DNA of 64,000 nt, taken from positions 4,384,001 through 4,448,000 of the forward strand of contig CM000154.2 in assembly GCA_000004695.1 (NCBI GenBank), written 5' to 3'. The notes beneath the pieces were generated by a model. The model was not told the DNA's origin and did no database searches. It saw nothing but the letters and a program-made list of their open reading frames with translations. The stretch comes from Dictyostelium discoideum (Eukaryota). A program made the translations under genes and the position numbers. Shown in pieces: positions 3,215-61,600 of this stretch. The stretch's first letter is position 1; the number at the start of each line of letters is the position of its first letter.

Positions 3215-5650
3215 ATGAAATCATTTTTAGAAATTACAGGAGAAAATGGTGATACACCAACAACAAGTTATTTATTTTCAGATTCTGATAGATATTTTTT
3301 TGATTGTGGTGATGGATTTCAAAGATTCATTAAAGGAAGGTCAAATATAACATTTGGTAAAATTAAATCAATATTCATAACATCATTATCATGGGATTGT
3401 ATTGGTGGGTTAATTGGTCTATTCTTAACTATGGCAGAATTGAATATTAAAGTTCGTTTATATGGTCCAAAAGGTTTACATAAATTATTTACATCATCAA
3501 GAGAATTTCAATATCAATTGAATGTAGAAATTTATGAAGTTGATTCAACAATAATTCAAACTATTAAAGATGATTCATTTACATTTTATACATTACCAAT
3601 TACTAATAAAAACAATAAAGATGATGATAATGATGAAATTAAATCGATTATTGATGAAAGTAAAACTCCAACTTTAGCATATTATGGTAGAAATCCACAA
3701 CCTATACCAACAACTATTGAGAATGATTATGAATATGAAGAAAGTTCAATAGTTTGTTATATTGGTATGACAAAAGATTTTAAAGGTAAATTCTATCCAG
3801 AGAAAGCTGTAGCATTAGGTGTACCAAAAGGTATTTCATTTAAACATTTACAAGATGGCAAATCTGTGACAAATAAAGATGGAGTTACAATTACACCTGA
3901 TCAAGTTATGGATAAATCGATTAAAGGTACAAAATTTGCAATCATTAGATGTCCATCAATTGAATATTTACCAAGTTTAAAATCACATCTTTCAATGTTT
4001 ACAGATATTCATATTGTAAATCATATAGTTCCAAATGAAGTTTTATCAAATTTAAATTATATTAAATTTATGGAAGATATTAATCAACAATCAACAGCAG
4101 CAGCAATTAATACAAAACATATTATTGTAAATAATGAAAATTGTGAAAGGGTTTCAGGTTGTCAATCATCTGATAATCAAATTTTAAAACTTCAAAAATT
4201 TATACCATCATTATTTCCAATGAAACAACAATCTAGTGAACATGATAGTTTAGTTAAATCAATTGAATTTTTAAATGATTCAAAAATATTAAAAGATCAA
4301 ATTAATGTTTTCCCATGTAAAGAAACTACAAATTTAATATTAGGTCCACCACAAAATGCAGGTGATATTGAATTTTTACCATTAAATAATAATAATAATG
4401 GCGAAGGTGGTGTTGATTCAAATGAAAATGAAGGTTCTTCTGATAATAAATCAATGGAAGAATTTATAAATACAGAACAAGGTCAATTATTTAAAAAACA
4501 ATTAGATCAACAAGTTGAACAATTAGAATCAAATCCAAATAAATGTTGTCATCCAAAAATATTATTCACAGGTACAGGTTCAGCAATACCAAGTAAATAT
4601 AGAAATGTTACAGGTAATTTCATAACATTGGCAGATGATCAAAATATTCTATTAGATGCAGGTGAAGGTACATTTGGTCAATTGTATCGTTTCTTTGGTC
4701 CAATTGAAGTGAAAAAGCAATTAATTAATTTGAAAATGATTTGGTTATCACATTTACATGCTGATCATCATTTAGGTATACCAAATATTTGTGAAAAAAG
4801 ACAACAATATGCTCAAGAATTAGGTTTAAAAGATAATGAATTAGAGCCATTAATTATAATTGGACCAGAGGCATTGATTCAATGGGTTAATGAATTATCA
4901 GTTATTGTAAATTTAAAATTCATTGGTATTGCTATCAATGGTAATCATTCAAATCAATTGGTACAAACTTGTAAGAAATTAAATATTAAATCATTTTCAA
5001 TGGTACCTGTAATTCATTGTAATTATGCTTTTGGTTTAGTTATTGAATGGAATGATGGATTCAAATTAACTTATTCAGGTGATACTCGTCCTTGTAAATT
5101 CCTATCTGAAATGGGTAAAGATTCATGTGTACAAATTCATGAAGCAACTTTTGAAGATGAAAAACAAATGGATGCTGTCTCAAAAAGACATTCAACTGTT
5201 GGTGAAGCTTTAGAAGTTGGTAGATTAATGAATTGTAAATTCTCTTTATTAACTCATTTTAGTCAACGTTATCCAAATTTAAAAATGGGTACATATAAAG
5301 ATACAAATTATGGTTTGGCAATTGATTTACTTCAAATTTCACCTTATCAATATCCATTAGTTTATAAAATGATTGAACCATTTTCTTTATTATTTGAAAA
5401 TGAAGCTCAAAAGAAATTAGATAAAAAATCAACTCAACCAACAACAACAAGTAAATCAAAATCTACAAAAACAGAAGATGAAAATAATACAATTGAAAAA
5501 GATGCTAAAAGATTAGAGAAATATCAAAATAAATATAAAGATGAAGTAATATTACCAGCTTATGTATATAATATTGATTCAAATTCTTTAACTTTAATAG
5601 AAAATACATTTGATGATTTATCAAGTCAACCTCAATTTGAAGATGATTAA
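3215..5650 (+). CDS. tRNase Z, long form (ELAC2-type tRNA 3'-processing endoribonuclease), 811 aa, apparently a single exon.
   Basis: ATG at 3215. C-terminal half has the metallo-beta-lactamase signature LFTGTGSAIPSKYRNVTGNFITL..LLDAGEGTFGQL and the HxHxDH motif LSHLHADHHLG. The N-terminal half is a degenerate pseudo-MBL domain (FDCGDGFQRF), as in long-form RNase Z. The length matches eukaryotic ELAC2. Confidence 0.85.
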   Translation: MKSFLEITGENGDTPTTSYLFSDSDRYFFDCGDGFQRFIKGRSNITFGKIKSIFITSLSWDCIGGLIGLFLTMAELNIKVRLYGPKGLHKLFTSSREFQYQLNVEIYEVDSTIIQTIKDDSFTFYTLPITNKNNKDDDNDEIKSIIDESKTPTLAYYGRNPQPIPTTIENDYEYEESSIVCYIGMTKDFKGKFYPEKAVALGVPKGISFKHLQDGKSVTNKDGVTITPDQVMDKSIKGTKFAIIRCPSIEYLPSLKSHLSMFTDIHIVNHIVPNEVLSNLNYIKFMEDINQQSTAAAINTKHIIVNNENCERVSGCQSSDNQILKLQKFIPSLFPMKQQSSEHDSLVKSIEFLNDSKILKDQINVFPCKETTNLILGPPQNAGDIEFLPLNNNNNGEGGVDSNENEGSSDNKSMEEFINTEQGQLFKKQLDQQVEQLESNPNKCCHPKILFTGTGSAIPSKYRNVTGNFITLADDQNILLDAGEGTFGQLYRFFGPIEVKKQLINLKMIWLSHLHADHHLGIPNICEKRQQYAQELGLKDNELEPLIIIGPEALIQWVNELSVIVNLKFIGIAINGNHSNQLVQTCKKLNIKSFSMVPVIHCNYAFGLVIEWNDGFKLTYSGDTRPCKFLSEMGKDSCVQIHEATFEDEKQMDAVSKRHSTVGEALEVGRLMNCKFSLLTHFSQRYPNLKMGTYKDTNYGLAIDLLQISPYQYPLVYKMIEPFSLLFENEAQKKLDKKSTQPTTTSKSKSTKTEDENNTIEKDAKRLEKYQNKYKDEVILPAYVYNIDSNSLTLIENTFDDLSSQPQFEDD

Positions 5651-5815: not shown

Positions 5816-7535
5816 TTAGAATTTTACAACTTTTACATCATCTAATAATTTGCAAACATCAAGAGATTGATTAAAATCATTTGATAAAATGATCTTTTTT
5901 ACAGACTTTGGAATTGAACCATTTAATAAAGGTTGTTTTAAATAACCTAAATGTAATTCTTCAACAGAATCTGGAATTATTGATGGTAATAAACATTGAT
6001 CAAATCCATTTTGTAATGAAATACATTTTACAGAATTTGGAATTGAACCTTCCAATAAATCTTTTTTAATAGCATGAATATCTAACCATTGGATACCATC
6101 TGGTACAATACCTGGTAATAAAACTTGATTAAAGTTACTACCGAATGTAATATTCTTAATTGTATTTGGTATTGAACCAAACATTAACTCTTTTTTAATA
6201 TCATGAATTGATAATACTACAACTTCATTTGAAATTACACCAGGTAGTAATTGATCGAATCCATCATTAATTGTTAAAAATTTTACTGATTTTGGAATTG
6301 ATCCTTCAATTAATGGTTTATCTAATTGAAAACAATGGATTGTTTTAATGGTTTCAGGTAATGTTCCTGGTGAAATAAATTGATTAAATCCATTCAATAA
6401 AATAATTGAATTGACATTTGGTCCAAATTTAAATTTTGATAAATTACCACAATCTTTACCAAATGCAATATTTGAAATGTTTTCATTTTCAATTGGGAAT
6501 GGGTAACTTTCTGAGTAGACATAAAATTTTAATCCATTATCTATTTTTTTTAATCAAAATAATTAAAAATTAATATCATTATTTTAATTTTATAATAATT
6601 GTTTTTAATTTATACATACAAGTTACATATCTGTAATTATCTTTATCAAATTGAATATTATTTTTATCATTTACATTTTCATTATTATTATTATCTTCTT
6701 GATTAATTTTATTTGAAACAATTTCATTTTTATTTTTTAAAGAAAAAAATGATTTAAATGATTCTTTTACATTATTAAGTTCATTATTATTAATGGTAAT
6801 AATATTATTTTTATAATTATCAGAAATTGTATTATTATTTTTTTCTTTTAATATAAGTAATGATTCTTGATATTTTTTAATAATATTTTTAATTTCTTTA
6901 TTAATTTCATTTTCATTTTCTTTTTCATTATCATTTTCTTTTTCTTTTTCATTTTCATTTGATAATTTTTTAATTTCATTTAAATTATTAATTGAAATTG
7001 AATTTTTAATACTTGATAATATTTGATCATAATTATTAATTGATGTTGTTATTGAAGAATTTAAATTTGAATTTTCTTCAAGTGTTGATTTTAATTGATT
7101 TTTTAAATCATTTTCAATGATGTTGATTAAATTATGAATTTTTTTAAATTCATTTGTTATTAATTCAATATTATTATCAAATTCATTTTTAATTTGATTA
7201 TATTTATTATTTGATAGATTTAATAAAATTTTATCATTTTTTATTGTTTCTGAAATTGTTGGATGAATTTTATTTTTGAAAATTTCAATTAATGATAAAA
7301 CATTGGTTTCATCCAATAGGTTTGCTTTATGACCTCTATGATGTTTATCACTTGTTAAACAATGAATGCAACATGGTATTAATTCACAATCTGAGCATAA
7401 AAATGTAATTTCATATTTTGGGTGTAATTGACATTTATTAATATTATTATTATTATTATAAATATTAATACTATTATCTTTATTATTAATTATATTATTT
7501 AAAACATTTTCATCAACAACATTATTTGAAATCAT
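5816..7535 (-). CDS. B-box zinc finger / coiled-coil / FNIP-repeat protein. Exon 1 is 7535..6620 and exon 2 is 6540..5816, with an intron at 6541..6619.
   Basis: ATG at 7535. A B-box-like Cys/His cluster follows: CQLHPKYEITFLCSDCELIPCCIHCLTSDKHHRGH. A long Asn/Glu/Lys-rich coiled-coil region comes next. A GTATGT donor at 6619-6614 (exon ends phase 1) joins an aaaaaaaatAG acceptor at 6542-6541. The junction codon t+at = Y gives ...DKDNYRYVT-Y-NGLKFYVYSESYPFPIEN.... Exon 2 carries repeated FNIP units (GFNQ.L..G.IP.S.. blocks) through to the stop at 5816. The ORF-track M at 6397 is a TTG, not a real start. Confidence 0.7.
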
Positions 7536-10536: not shown

Positions 10537-13916
<3,380 letters not shown>

Positions 13917-19174: not shown

Positions 19175-19177
<3 letters not shown>

Positions 19178-20149
19178 TCTCAATTATTTTATTCAAAAAA
19201 TTTATTAAATAACAATAATAATATTAGTAATAATATTAGTAATAATAATACAAATAATAATAATAATAATAATAATATCAGTCCAGTCGATTTCTCATCT
19301 AATAATGATAGACCACATTTACCATCAATAACATATAATGATAATTTAAATAATAGTAATAATAATATAAATAATAATAACAATAATAACAATAATAATA
19401 GCCCTTCAATAAATGGAATACCATTTAATATTAGTTCACCAAAAATATCATCATCTTCATCAACATCTTCATCAACTTCTCCATTGCCATCACCATCATC
19501 ATTTTTTAAATATAAAAATTTTAATCAAGAAGAGTCAACAATTACTGTGCCTCCTCTTTTAGCACCACTACAATTTACAAATGATATTAAAAGAACATTA
19601 TCACCACCAAATTTTCCATATTATAATTCATTTTCATCACCATGTCCATCACCAAACCATTTTTCAGTTTCACCAAGAAATTACTCTTCACCAAGTTATC
19701 CAAGCTCACCATTAAGCTCTCCAAAATTAAATAACAACCTTTCAAATTTATGTCTTAACAACAACAATAACAATAACAACAATAACAACAACAACAATAA
19801 TAATAATAACAATAATTATAATAATAATAAAAATAATAGCATTTATAATAAAAATGAATTTTTAAATTTAAGTAGTGAATCATTATTTTCATCATCCTCT
19901 TCTTCAAATTCTTTACTATCTTCCCCATATATTAGATCAGCTTCTTCAAATTCTTCACCTCCATTATGTTCTTCACCCCCATTATGTTCTTCGCCACCAA
20001 GATTAAATTACACTGACTGCGATAGTAGAGTTAATTATTTTATTGAGGAAGAATATATAAATATTAATAATTATAATAATAATAATTATAATAATAATAA
20101 TTATAATAATAATAATAACAATAATAATAATAACAATAATAATAATAAC

Positions 20150-20203
<54 letters not shown>

Positions 20204-20402
20204 TTGTATAATAATTTTTGTAATAATAATAATAATTTAAATAATAATAATAATAATAAAAATAATAATAATTTTACTAATAATATTAATAATAATAATA
20301 TTATAAATAATAGCAATGGTAACAATCTAAATAGTGGCTGTTCTTACTCTCGTAAAAATTATAATAAACAAAATAGAAGCAATAATAAAAATAAAAATAA
20401 TC

Positions 20403-20435
<33 letters not shown>

Positions 20436-20998
20436 TTAATAATAATAATAATAAAAGGGTTCAAAAATCACCAACTTTAATTAGTCAACAATCATTAATT
20501 CCATTGATTTCCAATGGAGATGATAGCTTCACAACTGCAACAGCAGAAGAAGCAGCAGAAGCTAGAACCATGACAACAACTACAACAACAACAACAACAC
20601 CAATATTATTACCACAACCAATTTCATCTTCTTTGTCATTGTTTCAAGAGATTAAACCAAGATACCAATGTGAACATACCAATTGTTTTAAAACCTTTTC
20701 ATCGCCACAATCAAGATCAAATCATTACACTCTAAAACATGATAGTAAATGTCAAGATCCAACAACTTGTCCACAATGTATAAGAAATCAAAAAATTCAA
20801 AATTCACCAAAATCAAAATGCAGACACTTTGGTTGTGGTAAAATTTGTTCATCAGCAAATCTCGCCAAACATGAGAAAACGTCGCATCATAAAACAAATA
20901 CCTTGGAGAAATTCTCATGTACAAAATGTGATGATTTATCAAATATCTCTTGTAAAAACTCCTTACCACCTTGCTCAACAATTATTGAAAAAAAATAA
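19175..20998 (+). CDS. Asn/Ser-rich protein with two C-terminal C2H2-type zinc fingers; putative transcription factor. Single exon.
   Basis: True ATG at 19175 after an A-tract. The ORF is 607 aa, mostly poly-N/S low complexity. The C-terminus carries CEHTNCFKTFSSPQSRSNHYTLKH (C-x4-C-x12-H-x4-H) and CRHFGCGKICSSANLAKHEKTSHH (C-x4-C-x8-H-x5-H). Confidence 0.55.
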
Positions 20999-21149
20999 AT
21001 AAAAAAAAAGAAAATCAACCTCTTTCCCAAACCTTTGTAACAACAACCAGTGCACATTTAAAAATGTAAATAGTTTACAATCATGTATCTAATTAGAATA
21101 ATTAATTATAAAAAATAAAAAAAAATAAAAAAATAAAAAAATAAAAAAA

Positions 21150-21333
<184 letters not shown>

Positions 21334-21473
21334 TAATAGTAATATTTTAATTAAAAGTTTTGGTATTATAAAAAATTGTAAATTAAAATAAATGTTAGAA
21401 AAAAAAAAAAAAACAAATAAAAAAAATAGTGAAAAATGATTAGAAAAATTTAAAATTAATGAATTTTTTTTTT

Positions 21474-21540
21474 TTAAATTTCGGTGGTCACTTTATTTTA
21501 TTTTTTTTAAATTTCGGTGTTCAATTTATTTTTTTTTTTG
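21474..21540 (+). promoter_or_regulatory. Tandem direct repeat of about 30 bp in the 5' flank of the Tgr-like gene.
   Basis: The units taaatttcggtggtcactttattttatttttt and taaatttcggtgttcaatttatttttttttt sit back to back, about 140-200 bp upstream of the ATG at 21679. They are the only complex sequence in an otherwise A/T homopolymer flank. Confidence 0.2.
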
Positions 21541-21678: not shown

Positions 21679-22043
21679 ATGTATGGAAATAGAATATTAT
21701 TTTTCCTTATTTTATTTTCTCTTTTATGTCTTGTTAATGGTCAATTTCAATTGACAGATTTATCAAGTAATACAGATAAAATAAAATATTTAGAATCAGA
21801 TGGCTCAACATGTAATTTTAAAATTCCAATTTTAGCCAATGGTTCAGGAACTTTGAATTTTTTAAGTGAAAATACTATTCCTGCACAATGGTTTCCATAT
21901 TCATATTCATCAGGTTCTAATACTCTATTTCTAATAGAGTTTAGTTCAATAAAAAAGGGAGAAAAAGAGTTTACTATTTCAGCAGATAGTGCTCCTTCAA
22001 TTAAAATAACTTTATCATGTTTGTGTAAGCATTACTATTTTAT

Positions 22044-22091
<48 letters not shown>

Positions 22092-25000
22092 ATTAATTGA
22101 TATTTACATATTAATTTTGGTGGTGAAATTACATTTAGATCAGTATCAAGTAATCAAAGACCTATTTATTCATTATCAACATCATTCAATAATATTCAAA
22201 TTTATGTATCACCAAGACCAATCTCTGGTAATGCAAATAATATTACCTACATAGTTTATTGCCCTCGTTTTGAAAAAAGTGGAAAACAAGTATATAATTT
22301 AAACTCATTTTTACCATTTGGTAATGCTACTATATCAACAATAAGTATAGTATAGATATCCAATTATATATATTTTTAAGTATAAATACTAACAAAAAAA
22401 AAAAAAAAAAATTAATAGGTAAATTTTATAATACTCTAAGTATTTTTAATAATAATTCAGCAAATATAATTTCAAATAATCAAATAGGTGAAGCATCATT
22501 TGATCTTTCATTTGAAAATTTAAAAGGTTACGATTTTAAAACATATCAATACCAATTTAAATCAGGATCATCTATATATTCAGCATTTCCATTTGGATTT
22601 AAGAGTGGAAATAATTCAAAATTTAATTATTTAGCATCGTTTTTAACATCTAATCAGTCAAGTAATCCCACTTCGGAATTAAAAGTTGATGAAATTACAT
22701 TTCAAGTAACTCCTAATCAATTGGTTCTCACAACAGATGATACTCTCCGTATTGAAGATTTAAGATTTTTAGAAGCCACCAATTTTAAATTTGTAATTAG
22801 AATTATAGCTGGTAGTAAATATTTAGTAAAATACTTTATTATACCATTAAAAAATGGTTTAAATATAAAGATTGACAATAGTAATGTTATTTCTCAAAAT
22901 TTATTACTTGGAATTTGGGAATATATTTTCGATGCTTTTTCATATGGAACTGATTTTGAAGGTAATATTATTATCTATAATTTCAATGATCAACAAAAAT
23001 CATATTCATTAGGATATCCATATGATGCAAAAAAACCTAACAATATTTTATCATTACCAAAAACTGATCTATCAAGTAAGTATACTTTATTAATTTTATA
23101 AAATTATTATTAAAAAAAATTTAATTCTAATTAAAAAATTTATTATTATAATTAAAAGATTGTAATTATTTACAAGATATTAAAAATATTTCATTTTTAA
23201 ATAATAATATTGATTTAACTAATCAAAATGTTGATAATATGATATATTTTTCATTTGGAAATAATAATAATAATTATATTACAAAATCAATTGGATTTTC
23301 ATTAACTGACCCAAAATCATTAAGAGATCAAGGTTTTAATGGTGATATTTCAAAGTATTACAATACAAAATTAACATTTGCAAAATTTGATTCAATTAAT
23401 AATAGATTTAGTGCACCATTTAAAATGCCAGCCAATATAGTACCAGGTCAGTTGGATTATACTATAATATTTGATAGAGATAATATTATTCCAAGTGTAG
23501 CATTACCAATGGAGTATCAATTAAATGTTACAAGTTCAAATGTTGATATTCAAGGACCAATGATAACAAATATAATTTATAATTATAATTCAATTTCTTT
23601 TGGTTGGACAATTACAATTGAAGACTCAATAAATGGTTTTGATAGTGGTTATATTCTAATTAGAGGTGTAATTGATAATTCATTATACAATATTTCATTC
23701 TCAAATAGGGATGGTAAAAATGGTAATAATAAATTTAAAAACAATTATGATATTCTAATAGAATTAGATAAAACTCATAAGTGTACATCACAAAATTATT
23801 CAATCAATTATGTTTATTTAGTTGACACATTTGGTAATGAAGCAACATTTTATAAACATGCAACTGATATACAATTAAATAAAATGGTTTATAATTCGGA
23901 TTCAACTGGTAATCCATTAATAAATTTTATAAATCAACAAAATTTATTTAGTATTTTATCACCAGATTATTGCAACTCTCCTCAAGTTGATTCAACAATT
24001 ACTTTACTTAGTTTTAATACAACCACTACTGAAATAGATGCTGGTTCAATTAATAGATCTGTAACATTTGATTTTGAAGTACAAGATTCTGTTTGGGGTT
24101 TAAAAAAAGATCAATATCCAATGGTTTATTTAATTTCTCAAGATTTTAAATCGGTTCAATGTGTCTCTAAAATTGTATCTTTAAATGATTTTAAAGGTGT
24201 TTATCAATGTACTTTTGATCAATTACCACTAGGTTTTGGCTTTCCAAATGGTTTGAGTATATCAGTTTATGGTTTCATTAATAATGGTGGTCAATTTTAT
24301 GGTTTCTCATCATCAATGTTAAAGAGTTTAGGTTTTAAAAATTTTATAAGTGTTTTACACTATAATCCAAATTTAATATTCATTACTGGTACAAGTGAGG
24401 TAACTGAATTAGATAGTGAATTCTTAATTTATGGAACTGCACTCACAAATGTTATTACAGCTAGAATAACTCTTTCAAATGGTACTCTTATAGAATGCCC
24501 TTGTAAAAGTACTTTTAATAGTATTCTCAAAGTTTTATTTTTCCCAATTGGTATTAAAGATCCTTTTACAATTACACTAAATGGAGTTTTAAATGATTAT
24601 TCAAATGTTTACCCGGTTACACCAATTCAATATAATTTCAAATATGAACCAATAATAACTGAAACTCCAATAGTTACATACCCACCTCAAAAATGTAAAG
24701 GCTCACCAGAATGTGGTGGTACATCCAATGGTTATTGTTCCAATTCAGGTTGTATTTGTTATTCACCATGGTTTGGAATTGATTGTACATCTCAAATTAT
24801 AACAGTAGCTCCACCATTGATTGATACTGATAAACCAATAACATCAATTGATGTACCAAAAGATTCAAATGGTAATAATATAAAATCAATTATATCAATT
24901 GTTGCATTAAGAGAAATTAATTCAGTAACAAATGAACAAATTAAAATTCACTATTTTGAAAAATGGATTTATAAAAATATCTCCTCAACGATTTCACAAT

Positions 25001-25722
25001 ATACAAGTAATATTACAAATGGTGATGGTGATGATGGTAAGCCAATAACCACTACAACCATCACAGCAACTTTAGAATGGTTTTCAGAGAGTAGAAATAT
25101 TTCTTTCGCAAATCAACAATTAATTATGAATCCATCAAGTATGAAATATACCATAGAACTTTCATCATATGCTTTTTCAAATTCATTATCAAATTTACAA
25201 GTGGTAATGTCTGCTCAAATTCAATCAAACCAAAAAAATATTTGTTCAGATAAAGATTTTGGAAATACTACAATGGAAAATTCAAACTATATAAAATTAC
25301 AAGTCGCATCTAATAGTTTCTATGGAAGATATATTAAACGTGGTATTGTTGATGGTAAATTCATTACGGTTGAAAATGAAATTTTAGATTCAAAATTTAA
25401 TGCAATTCAAAGTGAAAATACTGCTCAAACTTTTATTGGTATTTTAATTGGAAGATATGTAAATTATGCTATTATAGATCCAGACTTTTCAATATTAATT
25501 GAATCAAACTCTGCCAATTCCAATTCTCCAAATTCAATTTGTTCAGCATCAAATTCAACAAAAGTTTCAACTGGACAACTTATTGGTATAATCATTGGTT
25601 CTTTTATTGCTTTCTTATCATTGTTAATAATTGTTTTATTCCTTATGTATAAATCTCCTCATTGTTTATTTTTTAAAATTTTTATTTATAAAATTACTAA
25701 AAAGTCAAAAATAAATAAATAA
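21679..25722 (+). CDS. Type I transmembrane glycoprotein with IPT/TIG-like and EGF-like extracellular domains (Tgr-like architecture). Exons are 21679..22024, 22144..22344, 22419..23075 and 23159..25722.
   Basis: ATG at 21679 with a signal peptide MYGNRILFFLILFSLLCLVNG. Exon 1 to 2 uses donor T|GTAAGC at 22025 and acceptor atcAG at 22143; the alternative, donor GT at 22023 with acceptor tttAG at 22138, adds 2 aa. Exon 2 to 3 uses donor A|GTATAG at 22345 and acceptor attaatAG at 22418, with a tactaac-like branch point. Exon 3 to 4 uses donor A|GTAAGT at 23076 and acceptor aaaAG at 23158. All three junctions are phase 1 and frame-consistent. The last exon has an IPT/TIG-like segment (PNLIFITGTSEV..LIYGTAL.NVITARITLSNGTLIECPC.....L.V.F.PIG......ITLNG) and an EGF-like module (CKGSPECGGTSNGYCSNSGCICYSPWFGIDCTS). 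There are many N-x-S/T sites, a TM helix LIGIIIGSFIAFLSLLIIVLFLMY, and a short basic tail. Confidence 0.65.
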
Positions 25723-26175: not shown

Positions 26176-26335
<160 letters not shown>

Positions 26336-26370: not shown

Positions 26371-28340
26371 TTATACAATAATACGAAGATTTGTATTAAG
26401 ATTATTATTTCTATTATTAGAACCACGATTACGACCTCTAGTTACATATAAGACTGATACAATAGTTGTTGAGGTTGGAGGGTAAAAATAAGAATCTAAA
26501 TTAACCAAATAACTACGAAGCAATAACTCTTTCATGAACTGTACACCTTGAGTATTGATATTGTTATGGTTTAATTGTATTGAAGCCAATGATTGATTGT
26601 ACCATAGAGCTTCACATAAGGCTTTAGCACCATCATTTGTGATACCATTACCAGAAAGGTTTAATTCAGTGATTGATTGATTTTGTTTTAATGAATCACT
26701 TAGAGCTCTACAACCTTCATCACCAATTTCATTTCCACGTAATTGAAGATCGGTGATTGTTGAATTTTGACGTAATGCTTCACCCAAACGTTTTGCACCA
26801 ATTGGACCCAATCCATTGGTACACATTGAAAGTTTTGAGATTTTCTTATTCATTGCTAAACCCTCAGCTATATGAATTGCACCAAGGTGACCAATTTCAG
26901 GATTGATTGAGAGATCTAGTATCTCTAAAGATCTATTTGTTTTCAAAGCATTACCAAGTGAAGTGGCACCGCTTGCACCAATATTATTGAAAGCCAATGA
27001 TAAATTAATGATTGAATGATTTTGAGCTAGAGCATCCCCCAATTGAACGGCACCTTTATCACCGATTGAATCACCGGTCAAATCGAGATAGGTTATAGAT
27101 TGACACATGGATAAAGCGGCAGCCAATGGTTTTAAACCTTTGTAATTGAATTCGTTTCTTGACATATCGAGATAGGCAATCGTTTGACTGGCTTGAATAC
27201 CTTCGGAGATATATTTCATACTTTCGGGTGATAGTTTAGTATCACATAAATTTACAGAAGCAAGACAAGGATGTTTTCTAATGGCTTCACCAACGTATTT
27301 CGAACTCTTTTCATTGAGATCATTCTTTGAAAAGTCAACCTCTGTTAGTGAACTATTCTTACCAATGGATTCCACGATGAAATCGATACCTTTGGCGCCG
27401 AATCTATTTTTAGAGAGATTAATGGTTTGTAGGATCGTAGTGGATTGAAGTGCTTGACCCAATGCTTTTGAGCCTTTGAGACCAATACAATTTTGTGAAA
27501 GATCCAAATTGATTAGGGTGGTATTTACCAATATCGCTTTGGAGATCTCTTCGGCACCCTCATTACCAATGGAATTAAAACTCAAATTCAAATGAGTGAT
27601 GGTTTTATTTGCCAACAAACATTCACCAATACAATGTGCTGCTTTATTTCCAATACCATTTTGTGAGAGTTCCAATGTCGTGATTGTGGTATTTTTGGTT
27701 AATAACATCCTAACAAAACTTGATACATCGAAAAGGGTAGGTGTTGATACCTTTAGTTGAAGGTTTATTAAATTTGGATATACATTATTTGAAAGATTAC
27801 GAAATAAATTGGTAATACTACGATCTGGTGGTAATTGATAGGTATAATTAACTAATCTTCCAACTGATATCTTTCTCCATTTACTACATACACTACATAT
27901 GTTTGTAAAATTTTGTGAATTTGGTTCATCTTTATGTGCTTTACCCAAAATATTGGAAATAATAATATCTGCTAATGATCCAATAAATGGTGGTCTTTCT
28001 CCTGGTTTTAATAATATTTCTGGTGTTTCATATGTTATATTATTTGGTGCTGATTGATTATTATTATTATTATTATTATTAGGCGGAGTGGTTGATGATG
28101 TAACCCGTGGTGATTGGTTTGATGCACTACTTCCACTTCCTGCCATTAAATTACTTGATGATGATGATGTCGACTCCTCAATCGAATCTGAATTTGTTAA
28201 ATTTGTTATTGAATTATCGTTTTTATTAAAATTATTGTTATTATGGTGACTTATTTGTGGCGATGATGTTGGTTCTTGTTGATTACCATTCCCTTGGTTA
28301 TTATTGTGGTTATTATAATTATTGCTATTATTATTATTAC

Positions 28341-28380
<40 letters not shown>

Positions 28381-28806
28381 GTTATTATTACTATTATTAT
28401 TTGATTGGAAATGATAATTTTGTAAATGTTGATGAATATGGTGTTGTTGCATATGATTTATTGGGTGATTATTGTTATTACTATTATTATTATTACTATT
28501 ATTAATATTATTATTATTACTATTATTATTACTATTATTATTGTTGTTATTATTACTATTATTATTATTATTATTATTGTTATTATTGTTATTATTATTA
28601 CTATTACTATTACTATTACTATTACTATTACTATTACTATTACTATTACTATTATTATTATTATTATTATTATTATTTTTATCCAAACCAGGTTGGTGAT
28701 ATGATGCTTGATCTGAAATATCTATATCCTCTTTTTTTATTTGCGTCTCTAAATTGTTTGATTGATCTTGTCCTGATATAAAATAAAATTGATGATCAAC
28801 ATTCAT
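26371..28806 (-). CDS. F-box/LRR-repeat protein (RNI-like leucine-rich repeats) with an Asn/Gln/His-rich N-terminal region. Single ORF.
   Basis: ATG at 28806. Low-complexity poly-N/S/Q N-terminus. An F-box-like motif follows: GSLADIIISNILGK...FTNICSVCSKWRKI. Then come about 14 RNI-type LRRs (L.LS.N.IG..GA..L..AL..N.T), each roughly 28 residues. Confidence 0.7.
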
Positions 28807-42906: not shown

Positions 42907-45500
42907 TTACATTTTATCCCAAGACCAAACTTTAAGATTACTAGCTAATGAACCAGTAAATAATTGATTTTGATTTCTCCAAAGACAAAGAATTGAAGAT
43001 CTTGTATTGAGAGAAGCTAAATTTTCGTATTTATCATGACTGAAAACTTGTAACCAATCACCGCTACCTGCAAAGATACCTTGATTAGTGACGTGAAGAG
43101 TTTCAACACGATCCTTACATTTGATGGTATTGACGCAACGTGTAGTTTTAAGATCCCAAATTCTAATAGTTTCATCATGAGAACCACTGTAGAGCATATT
43201 GTTATGAGCGTAAAGTGTTTTGACCCAACCTTCATGACCTTGGAAATTGGTGAGAATAGTACCAGTAGCTAAATTCCAAACGTAAATTTGTTGATCATTT
43301 GAGCCAGAGAATAAGAGATTACCCATTGCGCAAACCGATTTAATGGCACGAGTATGACCTGATAAAGTTTTAACGCATTCATATGATCTCATATCCCAAA
43401 CTTTAACGGTTTTATCGTTGCAACCAGTGTACAATAGATTGTCTTGAATGAAAATGGTATTGACTTCGTTGGATTCTTTGATCTCTTTGATGGTTTGTTG
43501 AGTGTTGATATCCCATTCCTTAACCAAAGAGTCTGCACCTGCTGTCAAAATATTTTGATCGAAACCTGGACGTTTAATGACTGCTCTAATCGATTTACCA
43601 TGTGCTTTAATGTTGGTAACATGTTTCAATTCAACAGCATCCCAAACACCGATTTGGCCATCATTTGAACCACTATATAATCTTAAACTATCACCAGTGA
43701 TACATTCTGATTGTAAACCTCTAACTGTATCGATATTCTTTATTGATGTTAAATCCCATTTTTCAAATTCTGAACGATCTGGTGTTTGTTCCATTGATGA
43801 TGTTGATGTCGATTCTGGTGTTGGAACATTCGATGATGATGTTGACGATGCTGATGCTGCTGCTGATGATGGTTGAATTGGTTGTTGTGGTGGTGGTGAA
43901 TTTCTAGAAACTTGAATTGAAATTGGTGCTGCATTTGTAGTTGATGATGATGAAGATGATGAAGATGATGATGATGATGAAGATACGCTACTACTATTAC
44001 TGTTAACACTACTACTATTGCTACTATTATTTATATTATCATTATTATTATTATTATTATTACTATTATCATTGTTACTGCTGATGCTACTATTATTATT
44101 ATTTATATTATCTTGTTCTAATTTTACATTACTATTTTCTTTTGGTGGTGATACAGGTGATTTATTTACTACATTTGATTGTGAAGGTGTTTTTACAATT
44201 TGAGGTACAGGTTTTGAAGTTGGTGAAGAAGGTGATTGCTGTTTATGTAAATTATTACCAGATGGTTGTTTAACCAATGGTGGAGAAGGTTTACTTTTTT
44301 GTTGTTGTTGAGCTCTAATTCTTTCCAATTGTTCTTGAAGCATTTTCTCTTCATCATCTAATGAGATTGGTTGTTGAGCACCACCACCATTTCTAAAGTA
44401 ATTCATATCGTAGTTATTCTTTGGACCACTACCATTACCATTCAACCCGATTGCATCATGGAAATCCATTAATTGTACGACGGGTAATGTACCTCTTAGG
44501 AGGGCTTTCTTTGATTGATTGATTGGTTTCAACTTTAAAAAGTCACAAACTGGATTACACTTGTGTGTTTGAAGGAATTTGTGGAAACCCGTCTCGCCCA
44601 AATTACCCTCGCCAAAGCCCTCGCCTGATTTCGTATGAATTTGAGGATCAGTGTAGAAATCGTTGACACCTTGGATATCAACGATCAACAATTCATGATT
44701 GGAGAGTTCGTATGAGAAATGAGAGAATGATTGTGGTGTATTTCTAGCATCACTACTAACGTAACCACTGTTGTTGTTATGTTTCTTGTAATCTCCCTCA
44801 ATGAATGGTTCACCACCACAAACTGGATAAGGTGGTGGATGATCAATCAATTCGTAAACGTATGATGGTAAGAATGTAATTGGTTTTGGTGGTTTCGCTT
44901 CATTGAATTTCTCTGCCCATTTAGCACAAAATGTTTGCATCAATACATCTGTAAAGTATGAATCTCTTGTCGTCTTTTTATTGGTTGAAAATTTACCAAC
45001 TAATCCTTGATCTGGTTGACTCCAATCCTTTAATTTATGTGCTGTTCTACAACTACCCTTTGCAAATGGAGTCTTCTCAATTGAAACACATACAATACTA
45101 TGTGTCCATTTTGGTTTTAAATCATCACCAATTGTTAATTCCCATCTTTTTTTTTTAATAATAAAAAATAATTATTAGTAAATTTAATAATAAAAATTGA
45201 AAAAAAATTGAAAAAAAAAAAAATTAAAAAAAATTAAAACCATACTTTATTGCTCTTTCACATTTTGTACCTGCAATAACATCGGCAACTGGGAATTTTT
45301 GATTTAATAATGCCAAAGCTGTCATTTGAAAAATAAATAAATAATAATAATAAAATTTTAGTTTTATTAGTAATTTGTTCAACTTTTTTTAAAAAAAAAA
45401 AAAAATAGGTTTCTATGTAGTATAAAAAATATAAAATAAAATAATATTTATTTAAAATTGATAATTTACCTGCTGCTGCTCCTGTTTTTTTTTCTTCCAT
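42907..45500 (-). CDS. Alpha-kinase/WD40 protein of the myosin heavy chain kinase (MHCK B/C/D) type. Exons are 45500..45470, 45318..45246 and 45145..42907.
   Basis: ATG at 45500 gives MEEKKTGAAAG|GTAAAT (phase 1). The acceptor gacAG at 45320-45319 leads to ALALLNQKFPVADVIAGTKCERAI, then the donor AA|GTATGG at 45245 (phase 2) and the acceptor aaaAG at 45147-45146. Exon 3 begins KWELTIGDDLKPKWTHSIVCVSIEKTPFAKGSCRTAHKLKDW... and continues to ...DIQGVNDFYTDPQIHTKSGEGFGEGNLGETGFHKFLQTHKCNPVCDFLKL, the alpha-kinase catalytic domain including the GNLG and CN..C motifs. A Ser/Asn/Gln/Pro-rich linker follows, then seven WD40 repeats (GSNDGQIGVWD, GCNDKTVKVWD, GSNDQQIYVWN, GSHDETIRIWD ...). Stop at 42907. 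Confidence 0.75.
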
Positions 45501-51006: not shown

Positions 51007-51269
51007 TTCTTTTTATTTTTTTTAATTTTTTTAATTTTTTTTTTTTATTTTAATTTTTTTTTTTTTTTTAGAAATCTGGTGATTTCTTGTGATGAAAAAA
51101 AAATCAAAAATAGTTGCAAGATATTTTTTATTTTTTTATTTTTTATTTTTTATTTTTTTTTTTTTTTTTTTTTTTTTCACAAATTTAATTTTAAATTACA
51201 ATCTTATTATATTTGTTTTTTTTGGTTTATTTATTGCTTTATTTATTTCTATATTCTTTTATTTAAACC

Positions 51270-53847
<2,578 letters not shown>

Positions 53848-54039: not shown

Positions 54040-55610
54040 TTAGTTATTGTTATTATTAATATTTTTTAAAATGATTGATTCATTAATTTCCCAATCTTGA
54101 TGATTATAAGAACCAATTGAAGTTAATAATTCTTTTGTGCTATTTGACATTTTGAATAAACTATTGATTTTAAAATTTGATACCATTAAATTTTGATTAT
54201 CGTGAATGTGGAATGTTGAATATCTTTTGGAAGACATTCCATTTGATTTTGAAACTAATTCAATCCATTCTTGGTAATCAATCTCTTTGCAATTGTAATT
54301 ATTTTCTAAAAATTTATAAATTGATTTCATTTCAATTGAATTACCATTTAAACTGTAAATTGAAATTGGTTTTGATTTATTTTGATTCCAACTGTTTTCA
54401 TTGAATATTAAATCGATTGTGGTTTTAGCTATAGTTGTAACTGGAGTTGTGAAAATTGATTTATAAATATTTGGATAATAACCAATCTCTTTTGAAGTTT
54501 TTAATAAAAGTGATACGAAATCATTTGAATGACCTATACCTGTTATTGGATTTGAGAATATATCTGTATTTATTATAATAATAATAATAATAATAATAAT
54601 AAAATGTTTATTTTATTAGAATCTATAAATTAAATATTAAAGGTTTATCATATATGATCTATATTTATTAATTACATACCAGGTGGTCTAATAATGATTG
54701 ATGGTATACCTCTTGATTCTGCTGCGTTTGTTAATAATTTCTCTGAAATAACTTTACATTGAATATATCCAATTGGTGTAGTATCAAAATTTGGTAATAT
54801 ATTTGTTTCTTCAAATTCTTCTCCATCTTTAAAAGGATGATTAATAAATACTGCAATTGATGAAAAATGAACTATTAACTTTTGTGAGCTATTATTTGAA
54901 ACTGATAATTTTACAATTTGATTGACGCTGTTAACATTTACAGTTTTACTTTCTTCGTAGTTTGATTTTAAATTTAAATCTGCTGCTGAATTTATAATAA
55001 TATCACATTCATTTGATAGTTTTAAATAATCTTGTTCAGTTAAACCAAATTTATCTTTTGAGATATCACCAATCATTGGAATGATTTTAATTAATTGATC
55101 TTCACTTATTTGTTTATAATATTCACTATTTTCAATATTACTTAATTTATCATTTGATATATTACCTGTATGATTGATTATTTTTGTTAATCTTTGATTT
55201 GGTGATTCTTTGTTCATATTTATTAATTGATGTTTCTTTAAATTATTAATAATTACATCGATTGGATTTGTTAATTTTGAATTATTTCTTATTAAACAAT
55301 AAATTTTTGATATATTGTTCATTTTAATTAATTCTGTTAATAAATATGCACCCAAGAATCCTGTTGAACCTGTTAAGAATATTGATTTACTATTATTACT
55401 TTTATTTAATATATTTTTAATTGAATATGGTCTTGAAATGATTGATTCATTTAATTTCATTTCATTTTTAATAAATTCATCAAGTGATTGTTGTTCTTTT
55501 TTAACCAAATTATTATTATTATTGTTATTTTTATTATTATTAATATTATTATTAATATTATTATTATTTTTATTATTATTATTATTATTATTCTTATTAT
55601 TATTATTAAT

Positions 55611-55641
<31 letters not shown>

Positions 55642-58600
55642 TTATTATGAGCAGATAAAATAATTTCAATTGATTGATTGATTTTATTATTTTGTAATTG
55701 TTGAATTGTGATAATATTATGACCTAATTGATTATCGATAAAATTCTTTAATTGTACAATCACTAAACTATCCATACCATATTGTGTGAGTTGAAGGTCT
55801 TCATTGATTTTAGATTCATCAATTGATAATAATTCACAAATCTTATTTAAAATTGTCGAACGAATAATTTCATTATTATTATCACCATCATTACTACCAG
55901 TGAAAGATTTGATTTGATTTGATTTTTTAACAATATTAATTTCAAAATCAAATTTTGAATGGTATTGATTTGTTAAAGTTGATGGTAAAATTTCAAAATT
56001 GAAATCTGATAAACAATAGTTTGGATATTGATGTTGATTTTGAATGAATAAATCTAATGAACTAATAACGAGTTGAGGTGAGAATAGTTTTAAAATTGAA
56101 CTCTTGAACATTGTTTCAATTGCATTATTACGTGATACGAAACCAGTTGATGATATCGCACCTAAATTAATGGCTAAAGATGGTAATCCAATTGAATGTC
56201 TATACTTTGATAATGAATCGATAACACTACATGCACTAACATAACAACATTGTTGATCTGATCCCAATATTGAGACTACTGATGATGCCATTATAAATTG
56301 TTTGATATTCCATGAACGATTAATCGATTGATTGTGAAGATTGATTGCTCCAATTGTTTTAGCACCATGTGTATTATTTAAACGATTCATATCGACTTGT
56401 TGGACATCACCAATATCATTCATAAATGCAAAATGAATGATTGAATCAATATTTGTAATATTTTCATTTAATTCTAATTGATTTAATACTTGATTAACTT
56501 TATTTGAATCTTCAATATCGATTTGATTGAAATGGAATTTAATATTATTATCTTTTTTAAATTTGCTTTGATTGATTAATAATTCTAATTCCCATTTTAA
56601 TTTTGATTTTGAAAGTATTATTATATTTTCAATTGAATCATTTGAATATTTAACCAAATATTTTAATATTTCTAAAACAATACCAGTTTGACCAGTGAGT
56701 AAAATATTCTTACCAATATTTAATTTTGAAATATCATACGAATGTTTCAATATGATTTGATTGTTATTACTTTGATAATTATTATAAACTCTATTAAATT
56801 CATCTTGATTGTGATTAACAATGATTTTACCAATATGTTTTCTTTGATTTATATATTCAATTGCATCTTTAAATTGATTATTTGAATATTCAATGATTGG
56901 TACACTTAACTCTAATTTATTTGAATTAATCATTTTGATAATTTTCTTTAAATAGCTTTTGATTAATTTACTTGTGAAATCTTCTACATACACATTACCA
57001 TAGTTCATATTAAATTTGTAATGATTGTTTGTCATATAATCATTTGATGTGAGATGAATGATACTTAAATCAACGATACGTCCTGATAAATTTAAACATT
57101 GGAAATTTGAATCCATATACTCTGATGATAATGTATTTAATATTAAATCTACACCTTGTTGATGTTGTTCAACTACACCTAATTCTATTAATTTATTCTT
57201 AATTTCATAAACATAATCTTTATTACGAGATGAATAGATAGCAGTAATTAATGATCCATATTTATTTATTAAATATTCTTCTTTATCTTTTGAACCAACT
57301 GTTAAAAATATATAACCTTGATGTTGTTTACTTTTTAATAAATCTAAAGATGATATACCGACACCACCTGCTGCTGAATGAATTAAAATTGATTCATTTG
57401 ATTTTAAACTACCAATACCATAGAGACTATGTAATGATGTAATATAAACAGATGGTATTAAGGCTGAAACTGAATGACTATAATTTAATGGTTTATAATA
57501 AATGTAATCATAATCTACAATAATATGAGAACTACTTGTTTTTGAGCCGACACCACAAACTTGATCACCAACTTTAAATTTCTTTACATTACTACCTAAT
57601 CTTGTGATTATACCGCTAAAGTCTTTACCAATTTTTGGATTATTAAAACCAATACAATTTTCAATTTCTTTACCATATTTAATATCTAAATTCGTACCAA
57701 TCATACCGATATACATTAAATAATCTTTATAATTCATACCAGTTGCTTTAATTTCTATCTCTACTTCATTTGAATTTAATTTATCTTTTTTACTATATAA
57801 TTGATATTCTAAATTTGAATTTAATTGAATACATAAATTATCTTTATTGTTTTCAAATGATTTAGATTGAAGTTTTGATTTAATATTATTTGATCTTCTA
57901 CAATATCTTTCATAGTATACTCTATTATTGTTAATCGTAAATTCTTTTTGAATATTATTATTTGGATTGATTAAATAATTGATTAATGATAATTGTTGAT
58001 TATTTTCAATTGAAACATTATCATAATTTAAAGTTAATAAATCTAATTGTGGGAATTCAACGAAATAACGAGCAGCACCAACAATTGATGATGATAAATA
58101 ATTATCAGTGCTTGAATTTAATGATAATAATAAATGTTTGAAATTATTTGATAATTCTAATTTTAATATTAATTGATTAATTTGAATGTATTCAAATGTG
58201 ATCTCTTTGAAATTTGAAGTATTCATTATTGATTCAATTGATTTTAAAAATATTATTAATGTTTTATTACAATCATCTTTAGTTTGATTATTTGTGATCC
58301 ATGATTGAAATTCATTAAAATTATTAATATTAATGATTTTATGTTTTAATTCTTGATTTAATGTTATTGAATCAAGAATACTACTGCAACTATTTCTATT
58401 ATTATCACTATTATTATTATTATTATTATTATTGTTATTACTAAATAAAATAATATTATTGAAAGAATTTAATTGATCTAATGATATTGATTGTTCTGAA
58501 ATGATTTCATTAATTGTTGGTTTTCTAGTTTGAATTAAAAATAGTAAATTATCATTACCAGACATTATTGTATCTCTATAATTACATTGATTTAAAAGGT

Positions 58601-61600
58601 TGATCCATTTCTCTTGTTTCATACAACATCTATCAGGTCTTAATTCGATATCACTATCAGAGGATGGCCACCATTGTGAAAAACAACCGAAAACAGAATC
58701 ATAAATAAATGATTTGTGTGGTGGTTCTATTAATAAAAGTTGACCATTTGGTGTTAATATATTATGAATTTCATTTAATGTTGGTTTGAGTTTCTTAACG
58801 ACATGCATAACATTTGACATTACAACGAAATCATAATAGGATGCTTTAAGATCTTGATCTAATAATGGTTTTTCTAAATCTAATACACGATAGATAATAT
58901 TTAAATTGTTGCGATTTGTAAATGATGAGAACTTTTCTTTAATTTCAGCGAAAAATGATGCAGATATATCACTCCATGTAAATTCTATATTAATGATTGA
59001 TGTTGTACTATTATTATTTAATAATTTACAAATCTTTTCTAAAATTAATAAACTAAGACTACCAGTACCGCCACCTGCTTCTAATATACGAAATACAATT
59101 GGTTCATTTAAAATTGGTTTTAGAGTTTCGACTATAATTTCACTTAATAAACTATTCAATGGTTGAACTACTCTTGAATTCTTATAAAAGTCATCAAGAT
59201 AACCACTTTCAAATAATGATTGTGGTGTATCTGTAATGGAATCATCATCTTTTAATGGGAATAGCTGTTTTGCCATTATTTTAGTTGTTCTAATAAATAA
59301 CTCTTCATTTTTTGATTTAATATTACTGTGATCATTGTCAAGGTTAACAATATTACTGTATTTCTTTAAATTTTCAAAAATGAATTTGAAAAGATTTTCA
59401 TTTGCAGAACTATTATAATATAATTGTTTAAATTGATTATATTCTAATGTTGTTAATGATTCTAAATTGATACTTGGACATCTATTATTAATATGTTTAT
59501 AAAATAATGACAATAATGATTCATTTGAAAGAAATTGATTATCTTCTTCTTTGACACTAAATTCATCTACTCTATATAAATGTTTGAATTGTTCAGGTTT
59601 ATTAATTACTGAATCTTTTGATTGAAGATATGGTGTATAGATATTATTTGATGGTGGTTCACATATTATTGTGCTATCAGGATTGGAGTCAAGTGAAACT
59701 AAAGCGCAAACCACATTTGAGATATCAACTAATAATGTACCATTTGGAAGTATGATTTTAACTGATATTGAATATGTTTGAGAATTGGTTCTTGGTTTAA
59801 TATCTGAAAAAACATATAATTCTTTAATATCATCATCATTATCATCATTATTGTTGTTATTTTTATTTAATGATGGAATGTTTGAAGAGTAATATTTGAA
59901 ACCTTCAATTTTATCAAGTACTACTGGTTGTGTGACTGCAACTAATGACCCATGTAAACAAGTATCTAAAATTGCTGTATTTAAAAATGTATTCATATTG
60001 CTATTGTTTATTAAATGATTATATTCTTTTTGATTGTAAATTTCATTTAATGATACTATTGCTAATGAACAATTATTACCGATATGACATTGTTTTACAC
60101 CTTGAAATAAACCTTTGTATGTTAAATTTGTTTTAATTCTAATAGTTTCATAAAAATCTTGTTTTGATATGCTTGTAAAATTACATTTATCTTTTAATGA
60201 TTGAATATTAATTAATTTGTTACTGATGATACTGTTGTGTTTGGTTAAACTAAAATTACCAAGAGATGTTAATATCCATTGATTTGTTTTTTGATCTTTG
60301 TAATAACTTTTGATATTGAATTCATTCTTTGATAGTGGTGCAATTGTAGTTTGTAAACATTGTCTATTACCTTCTGTTAATACTAATGGTGATTTAAATT
60401 CTAATGAGCTAATTGTAATATCTTGATTTGGATAAATTGATAATAAATTGTGAACATATCCCATTCCTGGATAATAGAATTTATCACTAACTTGATGACC
60501 TTTTAACCATTGGAATGGTGATTTCTTGATATCGATAAATGTTTGATATGATGGGTTAGGTGAATCTGTATTATTGCCAAGACCATGAATGGATGGACCT
60601 TCACTTTTAATCTTTTCAAGTAATGAGTTTAGTTTAAAGTATTCTTTATCATCCCATTGGTAAAGTGGTAAATTATTTAATTGGTTTGAATAGTTATTAT
60701 TGTTGTTGTTGATTAATTGTGATTTGAAATTAATATCAAAATTATTTTTGACATATAATAAAGAGATTGTCTTTAAGAATTCATTATAATCATTCTTCTT
60801 TTTATTTAATGGTGAATAGATTGTAATGTTTTTACCATTATTAAAGTAACTTGATTGAGTTGATTTCATTTGATTTAAGTAATATTGTAATGTTGGATGT
60901 GGTGAAACTTCAATGAATGTAATTTCATTACCCATATCATTTGATTCGATATGTTTGTAAAGATTTGTAATTGTTTGTGTGAAATATACTGGTTGAATAA
61001 TATTATCAAATACATAATTTGCATTGAATGGCGAGCTTTGATGATTGAATAAATTGGTTGTAACTGTTGAAAATACTGCTATCGATGGTTGTTTTGATGA
61101 AATATTTAATGAACATACTTCATCTTTAATCATTTGTTGACTTGATGTATGAAATGATGATAATGATCCTAACATTGAACAAAAGATATCATTTGATTTG
61201 AATTCTTTGGTAATTTCATTTAATAAGTCTTCTTTACCTGCGATAACGATTGATGTCGGTGAATTGTAACATGCAATTTCTAATGATTTATATTTAGTTG
61301 TAGATTGATATTTATTAATGAATTCATCTGAACTAATATTAACTGATAACATTCTACCTGTACCTGTGGTTCTATTTTGAGCTACTGATCTATGGTAAGT
61401 CAAGTAACATAATGTTTGAAAATCAATCATACCTGAACAATATGGCGATGATACTTCACCAAGAGAATGACCAATGATAATATCTGCTGAAACACCCCAA
61501 TGTTTATATAATTCATAGAGTGATACTTGAATCATTACATTTGCAGGTTGTGCTAAAATTGGTTGATGAATTGATATTAAATCTTTATCATCAATTGATC

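Follow-up and report, generated by a model that had tools for sequence, protein, structure and literature searches.

Locus identity and gene model

The 64,000-nucleotide (nt) stretch of Dictyostelium discoideum DNA analysed here (the window; contig CM000154.2, positions 4,384,001 to 4,448,000) carries at positions 21679-25722 of its forward strand the AX4 gene DDB_G0290635, which encodes a type-I membrane protein of about 1255 amino acids (aa). A first-pass annotation had assigned this gene to the Tgr (tiger) kin-recognition family; its domain content points instead to the ComC-like surface proteins, and comparison with orthologues suggests that an ectodomain module has been deleted from it. 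The 1255-aa model matches D. discoideum proteins with 100% identity in a cluster that includes XP_635705.1/UniProt Q54FR2 ('hypothetical protein DDB_G0290635, EGF-like domain-containing protein', 1253 aa, AX4), and the locus is therefore a real and already annotated gene.

Four coding blocks in three reading frames lie between the ATG at 21679 and the TAA at 25720-25722 and join in frame to 1253-1256 aa, as expected from the first-pass description of a single spliced gene of about 1250 aa. The 3.77-kb coding sequence contains no stops or frameshifts. When GT/AG pairs were enumerated in this A+T-rich DNA (GC content of 0.10-0.37 in the window), ten models reached a single stop. Intron 22345-22418 and the donor at 23076 are common to all ten. 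For the third intron there are two candidate acceptors, the exon start at 23159 being the choice conserved in orthologues, and three pairs at the first junction are both in frame and compatible with homology (22019/22144, 22023/22139 and 22025/22144). Three introns had been called, and all three had been given as phase 1, which holds only if donor 22025 is used with exon start 22144.

The locus was compared with syntenic orthologues from D. cf. discoideum (L001), D. dimigraforme (L002) and D. firmibasis (L003), which share the same upstream and downstream genes with the window. Further comparisons included a strain labelled D. discoideum (ACTFIW; L004) that is ~4-6% divergent, a second D. discoideum AX4-type assembly (ACTFIT; L005) that is 99.7% identical to the window over 6 kb, and a D. 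cf. discoideum strain (L006). The 1255-aa model is composed as follows.

21679-22024, forward strand: exon 1, encoding the signal peptide (21679-21741) and the first beta-sandwich module, and ending ...ITLSCL
22025-22143, forward strand: 'intron 1', 119 nt, 87% A+T, with a run of 40 A (A40) at 22048-22087; examined by alignment, translation and tblastn of the lost peptide
22144-22344, forward strand: exon 2, the remainder of an ancestral exon, encoding part of the N-terminal beta-sandwich region
22345-22418, forward strand: intron 2, 74 nt, GTATAG...ATAG, phase 1, position kept in L001-L003
22419-23075, forward strand: exon 3, encoding part of the N-terminal beta-sandwich region with the PFGF motif
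23076-23158, forward strand: intron 3, 83 nt, GTAAGT...AAAAG, phase 1, position kept in L001-L003
23159-25722, forward strand: exon 4, including the stop codon

The donor of intron 2 (A|GTATAGTATAG at 22345) does lie in the gtataGTATAG repeat that had been singled out as unusual, and at this conserved donor position the orthologues have GTAAAGTATAG, from which it differs in one A-to-T change. In the second AX4-type assembly, an automatic model (P0001, near position 8029 of L005; 1223 aa, ending ...FIAFLSFQK) apparently splices out the transmembrane helix and tail. This C-terminus is probably an annotation error; the helix and tail are continuous in the sequence and conserved in orthologues.

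Topology and domain architecture

Hydropathy analysis identified only two hydrophobic segments, an N-terminal signal-like stretch (residues 1-21, MYGNRILFFLILFSLLCLVNG) and a transmembrane segment (residues ~1208-1231, QLIGIIIGSFIAFLSLLIIVLFLM). Together with a tail of 24 residues, these agree with the type-I topology proposed earlier, comprising a signal peptide, one transmembrane helix and a short tail. The region encoded by exon 4 contains the following features.

23545-23955, forward strand (residues 531-667): DUF7035, Pfam E=2.3e-29
24001-24354, forward strand (residues 683-800): DUF7034, Pfam E=1.9e-33
24367-24630, forward strand: predicted divergent IPT/TIG-like (E-set) beta-sandwich, the site of the motif seen in the first pass
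24694-24798, forward strand (residues 914-948): EGF-like six-Cys module, DUF7949, Pfam E=1.6e-15
24877-25497, forward strand (residues 975-1181): ComC supersandwich domain PF22933 (ComC_SSD), 40.7 bits against a cut-off of 24, E=2.7e-10
25576-25647, forward strand: transmembrane helix, by hydropathy
25648-25719, forward strand: basic cytoplasmic tail of 24 residues, YKSPHCLFFKIFIYKITKKSKINK, conserved in orthologues

All four Pfam matches (DUF7035, DUF7034, DUF7949 and ComC_SSD) exceed the curated cut-offs. The protein contains 20 Cys. Its N-x-S/T sequons number 18, slightly below the composition-based expectation of 23.7 +/- 4 and short of the 'dozens' of glycosylation sites first reported. 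The compact EGF-like module was recovered as the DUF7949 match, with the sequence CKGSPECGGTSNGYCSNSGCICYSPWFGIDC and the pattern C-x5-C-x7-C-x4-C-x-C-x8-C, and its six Cys are invariant or near-invariant in the family alignment. Against Pfam EGF_TEN this module scored 14.4 bits, far under the cut-off, and the family profile matched the EGF modules of ADAM22 and reelin at E~0.02. In searches of PDB sequences, the exon-4 product gave no match with phmmer and the whole-family profile retrieved EGF modules only.

A ComC-like protein family

An exhaustive HMMER search with the exon-4 product retrieved 711 cluster representatives at E<=1e-3 (354 at E<=1e-30), most of them 1340-1430 aa long. The family was visible only by this route; a word-indexed homologue search was swamped by low-complexity words and returned 5, 1 and 5 proteins. 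Sampled members come from Dictyostelium, Polysphondylium, Tieghemostelium and Heterostelium and are all unnamed 'EGF-like domain-containing' proteins, the sole named relative in the family being ComC, which contains EGF domains, a signal peptide and a transmembrane segment (PMC4931340). In a Pfam scan of 36 diverse relatives, DUF7034 and DUF7949 were present in all 36, DUF7035 in 35, ComC_SSD in 34 and DUF7743 in 23, and the order DUF7035 then DUF7034 seen in DDB_G0290635 is the same in 35-36 of the 36. Furthermore, the orthologues and more than 700 family representatives can be aligned over the full length of the protein, and in the orthologues and about 80 aligned relatives homology extends through the entire N-terminal region that exons 1-3 encode, including a conserved Cys pair and the PFGF motif.

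On the basis of this Pfam architecture (PF22933 ComC_SSD with PF23034, PF23033, PF25820 and PF24893), DDB_G0290635 appears to be a member of a ComC-like family, its tie to ComC running through Pfam's naming of PF22933, not through direct comparison. Shared with ComC and ComC-like proteins are the order DUF7035, DUF7034, IPT/TIG-like segment, EGF-like DUF7949 and supersandwich, a signal peptide, a single transmembrane helix, a short tail and restriction to dictyostelids. In contrast to typical relatives and to its own orthologues, DDB_G0290635 is 133 residues shorter, an N-terminal module having been deleted, and DUF7743, present in 23 of the 36 relatives, was not detected at E<=1 in DDB_G0290635 or three orthologues. 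Mutants of comC are reportedly defective in intercellular communication, with lagC/tgrC1 expression affected; a search of the literature for comC together with lagC or tgrC1 yielded a single table entry.

A divergent IPT/TIG fold

The ~115 residues between DUF7034 and the EGF-like module have no Pfam assignment and are the site of the IPT/TIG-like motif of the first pass. Across the family, the segment has the consensus P-x-I-x-S-x-S-x5-GG-x-L-x-I-Y-G-x-x-F ... S-N ... P. The best PDB matches of a profile of 47 segments were the IPT/TIG protein BACOVA_02650 (5e7g, E=0.0076), CGTase domain D (E~0.4) and another IPT/TIG protein, and 6 of the 47 individual segments match Pfam TIG (best 7.6e-7). 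Neither the whole DDB_G0290635 protein nor its isolated segment matched Pfam TIG (PF01833) at E<=1, and none of the 36 relatives matches TIG as a whole protein.

In an AlphaFold2 (AF2) model, the DDB_G0290635 segment forms a seven-stranded Ig-like sandwich with a predicted local distance difference test score (pLDDT) of 92.7, which can be superposed on solved IPT/TIG domains. It differs from known domains of this kind (those of plexins, Met, EBF/COE, NFAT/NF-kB and CAMTA, CGTase domain D and galactose oxidase domain 3) in a sequence identity of only 8-17%, in the lack of a Pfam TIG match and in the loss of the GG and F of the signature (...LDSEFLIYGTAL...). The segment is thus a real, divergent IPT/TIG fold that belongs constantly to ComC-type proteins and does not speak for Tgr membership. 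The IPT/TIG-like call is upheld at the level of fold, whereas family-profile support for it is weak.

Deletion of an ectodomain module

'Intron 1' had been described as an ordinary intron. Comparison with orthologues identifies it as a lineage-specific deletion scar and not an ancestral intron. Orthologous proteins contain 133 additional residues between ...ITLSCL and SVSSNQRPIYS (P0002 residues 115-247), and the corresponding DNA of L001-L003 comprises an intron, an exon of ~100 codons, a second intron and an exon starting KIDFDQPVDIKTYPNPIDIDFMGDIFGGEITFRS. The donor GTAAGC at 22025 is conserved in L001-L003, and its distance to ATTACATTTAGATCAGT is 111 nt in the window versus 690-791 nt in L001, L002, L003 and L006. 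The 5' end of the ancestral first intron is joined in the window to the 5' end of the ancestral exon, such that the donor (TTG T|GTAAGC) is followed by 23 nt of intron, the A40 run, a scrambled remnant and 27 nt of former coding sequence (22116-22142), which translate to FGGEITFRS, the same as in the old exon. The second AX4-type assembly has the same structure, and the deletion is therefore not an assembly artefact. The length of the A40 run differs between the two AX4-type assemblies.

No AG occurs in the window sequence between the A-run and 22137, and splicing must therefore use AGs within the former coding sequence (TTTAG|ATCAG|). Donor 22025 with the first of these (22137-22138) breaks the frame and leads to a stop at 22252-22254; with the second (exon start 22144), it keeps the frame. 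The AX4 reference model uses a GT at 22019 and consequently drops the Cys of LSCL; of 80 family members, 78 have Cys at this position, and the probable partner of this residue, C45, is equally conserved. We prefer 22025/22144 over 22019 because donor 22025 retains this conserved residue, and the ancestral donor together with 22144 is probably a better first junction than that of the reference.

A moderate-confidence AF2 model (pLDDT 65) of residues 22-400 of the D. cf. discoideum protein is all-beta and consists of three apparent modules, the first (model residues 1-97) ending at the LSCL Cys, the second (103-206) comprising seven strands and the third extending from 222 on. In this model the lost residues map to the strands of 103-206, to the linker and to the first strand of the third module, and the deletion agrees fairly well with a module boundary. 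We propose that a ~0.6-kb deletion in the D. discoideum lineage took ancestral exon 2, the next intron and the first ~33 codons of the following exon, the lost exon corresponding to one predicted seven-stranded ectodomain module. The old donor at 22025 would now pair with the AG at 22142-22143 inside the former coding sequence to hold the frame, giving a product 133 residues shorter than the orthologues. This resembles exon loss with activation of a cryptic acceptor in that an exon and its downstream acceptor are deleted and the old donor is kept, the first usable AGs of DDB_G0290635 lying within the former exon; it differs in that splicing is here predicted from sequence alone.

Orthologue decay, selective constraint and expression

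The orthologues in L004 and L006 are, judging from their lesions, clear pseudogenes. In L004, a large deletion distinct from the one in AX4 is accompanied by an in-frame stop, a 1-nt deletion and a 68-nt fold-back insertion, and L006 carries deletions of 1, 7, 28 and 10 nt. No lesion is shared by the two loci or falls within a homopolymer, and the neighbouring genes remain intact. Long-read homopolymer errors were rejected as a cause of the frameshifts, given that none is in a homopolymer and several lesions measure 7-68 nt. A MAFFT alignment had suggested that the AX4 deletion is shared with L004; this was also rejected, as translation shows that L004 retains the beginning of ancestral exon 2 and that a deletion of its own has taken most of the ~1.5 kb that follows. 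The 68-nt insertion (L004 ~5950-6020, corresponding to window position 23411) holds a 38-nt inverted copy of the adjacent upstream sequence (ACATTTGCAAAATTTGATTCAAATAATAATAGATTTAG) and resembles a templated fold-back insertion. The branching order from exon-4 identities is ((((window,L004),L006),L001),L002),L003, and together with the unshared lesions this indicates that the inactivations were independent. The gene appears dispensable in the species complex, because it is a pseudogene in two sister lineages.

On the window-specific branch, exon 4 has accumulated 10-12 nonsynonymous versus 16-17 synonymous changes, corresponding to an omega of 0.15-0.19 (p~1e-5 to 1e-6 versus neutrality), the lowest of all branches and a sign of purifying selection. 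Gene-wide omega is 0.30-0.39, compared with 0.29-0.41 for the upstream neighbour and 0.18-0.23 for the downstream gene. In a comparison of tight aggregates of wild strains, 31 genes were up-regulated in chimeric relative to clonal aggregates; DDB_G0290635 is one of them, listed with the Gene Ontology term 'sexual reproduction' (PMC7029077). This induction is compatible with a role at cell contacts, as a correlation only.

Flanking sequences and neighbouring genes

A tandem repeat is indeed present 5' of the gene, as noted earlier, with a period of 33 nt in place of the 30 bp first given.

21463-21539, forward strand: 33-nt tandem repeat, 2.4 copies, core AAATTTCGGTG, identified with Tandem Repeats Finder, 140-216 nt 5' of the ATG

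Only the window and L005 have the core in duplicate; L004 has a single copy, and L001-L003 lack it. The core being absent upstream of these orthologues, a conserved role in the promoter is unsupported. Further out, the gene is flanked by trinucleotide arrays, (AAT)~84 at 21097-21344 and (TTA)~44 at 26178-26308, and by A/T homopolymers of 40-66 nt; such arrays and homopolymers are typical of Dictyostelium intergenic DNA.

The upstream gene (19175-20998, forward strand) encodes a 607-aa protein rich in poly-Asn and poly-Ser with C-terminal Cys/His motifs resembling C2H2 fingers (CEHTNCFKTFSSPQSRSNHYTLKH). It has no Pfam match at E<=0.001 and is syntenic in all species examined. The downstream gene (26371-28806, reverse strand) encodes a protein in which an RNI-type LRR_6 array (E=1.3e-43) comes after a poly-Asn N-terminus; this gene is the most conserved of the three (omega ~0.18-0.23). 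Elsewhere, the window encodes a 2463-aa open reading frame for a reducing polyketide synthase with AT, DH, MT, ER, KR, ACP and terminal reductase domains (54672-62063, reverse strand), the KS part of which is presumably located in an upstream exon. In addition, it contains an alpha-kinase domain followed by WD40 repeats (42907-44943, reverse strand; local GC content of 0.34-0.37, the window maximum), a 922-aa open reading frame without a Pfam match at E<=0.001 (51079-53847, forward strand), a tRNase Z gene of the ELAC-type metallo-beta-lactamase kind (3215-5650, forward strand) and a UBE2O-like ubiquitin-conjugating enzyme gene (10537-12186, reverse strand). No tRNA genes were found in the window.

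Functional interpretation and alternatives

We favour, with moderate confidence, the view that DDB_G0290635 encodes a ComC-like type-I surface glycoprotein that has lost a module and is still constrained and transcribed. Its ectodomain would form a chain of N-terminal beta-sandwich modules, DUF7035, DUF7034, the divergent IPT/TIG domain, the EGF-like module and the membrane-proximal 'supersandwich', anchored by one transmembrane helix, after which comes a short basic tail devoid of catalytic or known signalling domains. Such a protein could serve as a cell-surface adhesion or communication molecule that binds a partner via its ectodomain, and signalling, if any, might proceed via associated proteins, as proposed for ComC. 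That the AX4 copy specifies a still-functional, shortened protein seems fairly probable.

Several points weigh against this view. With the first AG, the best donor (22025, GTAAGC) gives an out-of-frame junction, and the main mRNA could be non-productive. As the deletion also takes the first strand of the next module in the AF2 model, the shortened protein may misfold. The constraint estimate spans the whole window branch and cannot show selection after the deletion. Moreover, the pseudogene branches of L004 and L006 still have omegas of 0.28-0.35, and a low omega therefore cannot exclude a very recent loss of function in AX4. The family link was made through the name of PF22933, and we infer the role in adhesion or communication from architecture and from the genetics of ComC.

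The alternative that survives best, although we regard it as clearly less probable, is that the AX4-type locus is a young unitary pseudogene, with a transcript that is mostly mis-spliced and open reading frames that persist for lack of time. It would account for the loss of 133 conserved codons, for the 27 nt of coding remnant inside an 'intron' and for the out-of-frame pairing of the strongest donor with the first AG, and the unambiguous pseudogenes in the two nearest lineages (L004 and L006) illustrate with their omegas of 0.28-0.35 that recent pseudogenes look constrained. It fits less well with 3.77 kb of coding sequence devoid of stops and frameshifts, with a window branch whose omega is the lowest of all, with the availability of three in-frame splice combinations and with the approximate match between deletion and module boundary; furthermore, the gene is expressed and regulated (PMC7029077). 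It is improbable that DDB_G0290635 is a chimera-responsive receptor of a second recognition system built on ComC-like proteins. If it were, module loss and repeated gene loss would represent rapid turnover of recognition specificity and not simple decay.

Slightly more doubtful still is the original proposal of a Tgr protein acting in kin recognition or adhesion, with allorecognition via polymorphic IPT/TIG repeats like those of TgrB1/TgrC1. DDB_G0290635 resembles these type-I social-amoeba surface glycoproteins in having one IPT/TIG-like (Ig-like E-set) fold, an EGF-like module, a transmembrane helix and a short tail, and in being expressed, as they are, at aggregation or tight-aggregate stages, with up-regulation in chimeras (PMC7029077); the TIG segment of one relative also weakly matches Pfam Ig_TgrO1 (E=0.022). 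However, the Pfam search recommended with that proposal yielded neither a TIG nor an Ig_TgrO1 (PF24612) match in DDB_G0290635 at E<=1, and the protein carries instead the ComC-type set DUF7035-DUF7034-DUF7949-ComC_SSD, an architecture found in all 36 relatives scanned. It contains a single divergent TIG-like domain and no repeat array. The gene has no adjacent, divergently transcribed partner, its neighbours being the unrelated Cys/His-rich and LRR_6 genes, and no paralogue or partner gene occurs within the 64-kb window. Its coding sequence is identical in the two AX4-type assemblies, and its synonymous divergence (dS) of 0.17 to L001 and 0.09 to L004 equals that of the flanking genes (0.13-0.17 and 0.06-0.09, respectively). 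These two assemblies and the interlineage dS thus give no sign of tgrB1/tgrC1-like hypervariability or of excess divergence. This separation from the Tgr proteins is based on Pfam profiles, architecture and genomic context, not on comparison with Tgr sequences. The least probable alternative treats exon 4 as a gene of its own, with its start at the ATG at 23239 and no relation to the upstream open reading frame pieces. It can point to an uninterrupted 827-aa open reading frame from that ATG and to a 751-aa product in one strain's automatic annotation, but the latter comes from a lineage in which the 5' part is deleted, the 827-aa product has no signal peptide, the homology of the orthologues and ~80 relatives spans the region of exons 1-3, and the positions of introns 2 and 3 are conserved, all of which favours a single gene.

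Read as a module-deleted ComC-like protein, DDB_G0290635 offers modest new points, the gene being already in the AX4 reference and its domains already in Pfam. These are the origin of intron 1 from a deletion, a probably better first donor, the IPT/TIG identity of the family segment and the recurrent decay of the orthologue in the D. discoideum complex. The gene catalogue gains little: the reference donor at 22019 drops a conserved Cys that 22025 keeps. The locus is also a clean case, in nature, of an exon and module lost by deletion, with splicing forced onto an acceptor in former coding sequence. For the family of ~700 clusters, recognition of its unassigned segment of ~90 residues as a divergent IPT/TIG domain would establish a fold-level link between ComC-like and Tgr-like surface proteins, and the way the gene was inactivated independently in the closest lineages exemplifies birth-and-death dynamics among dictyostelid surface-protein families.

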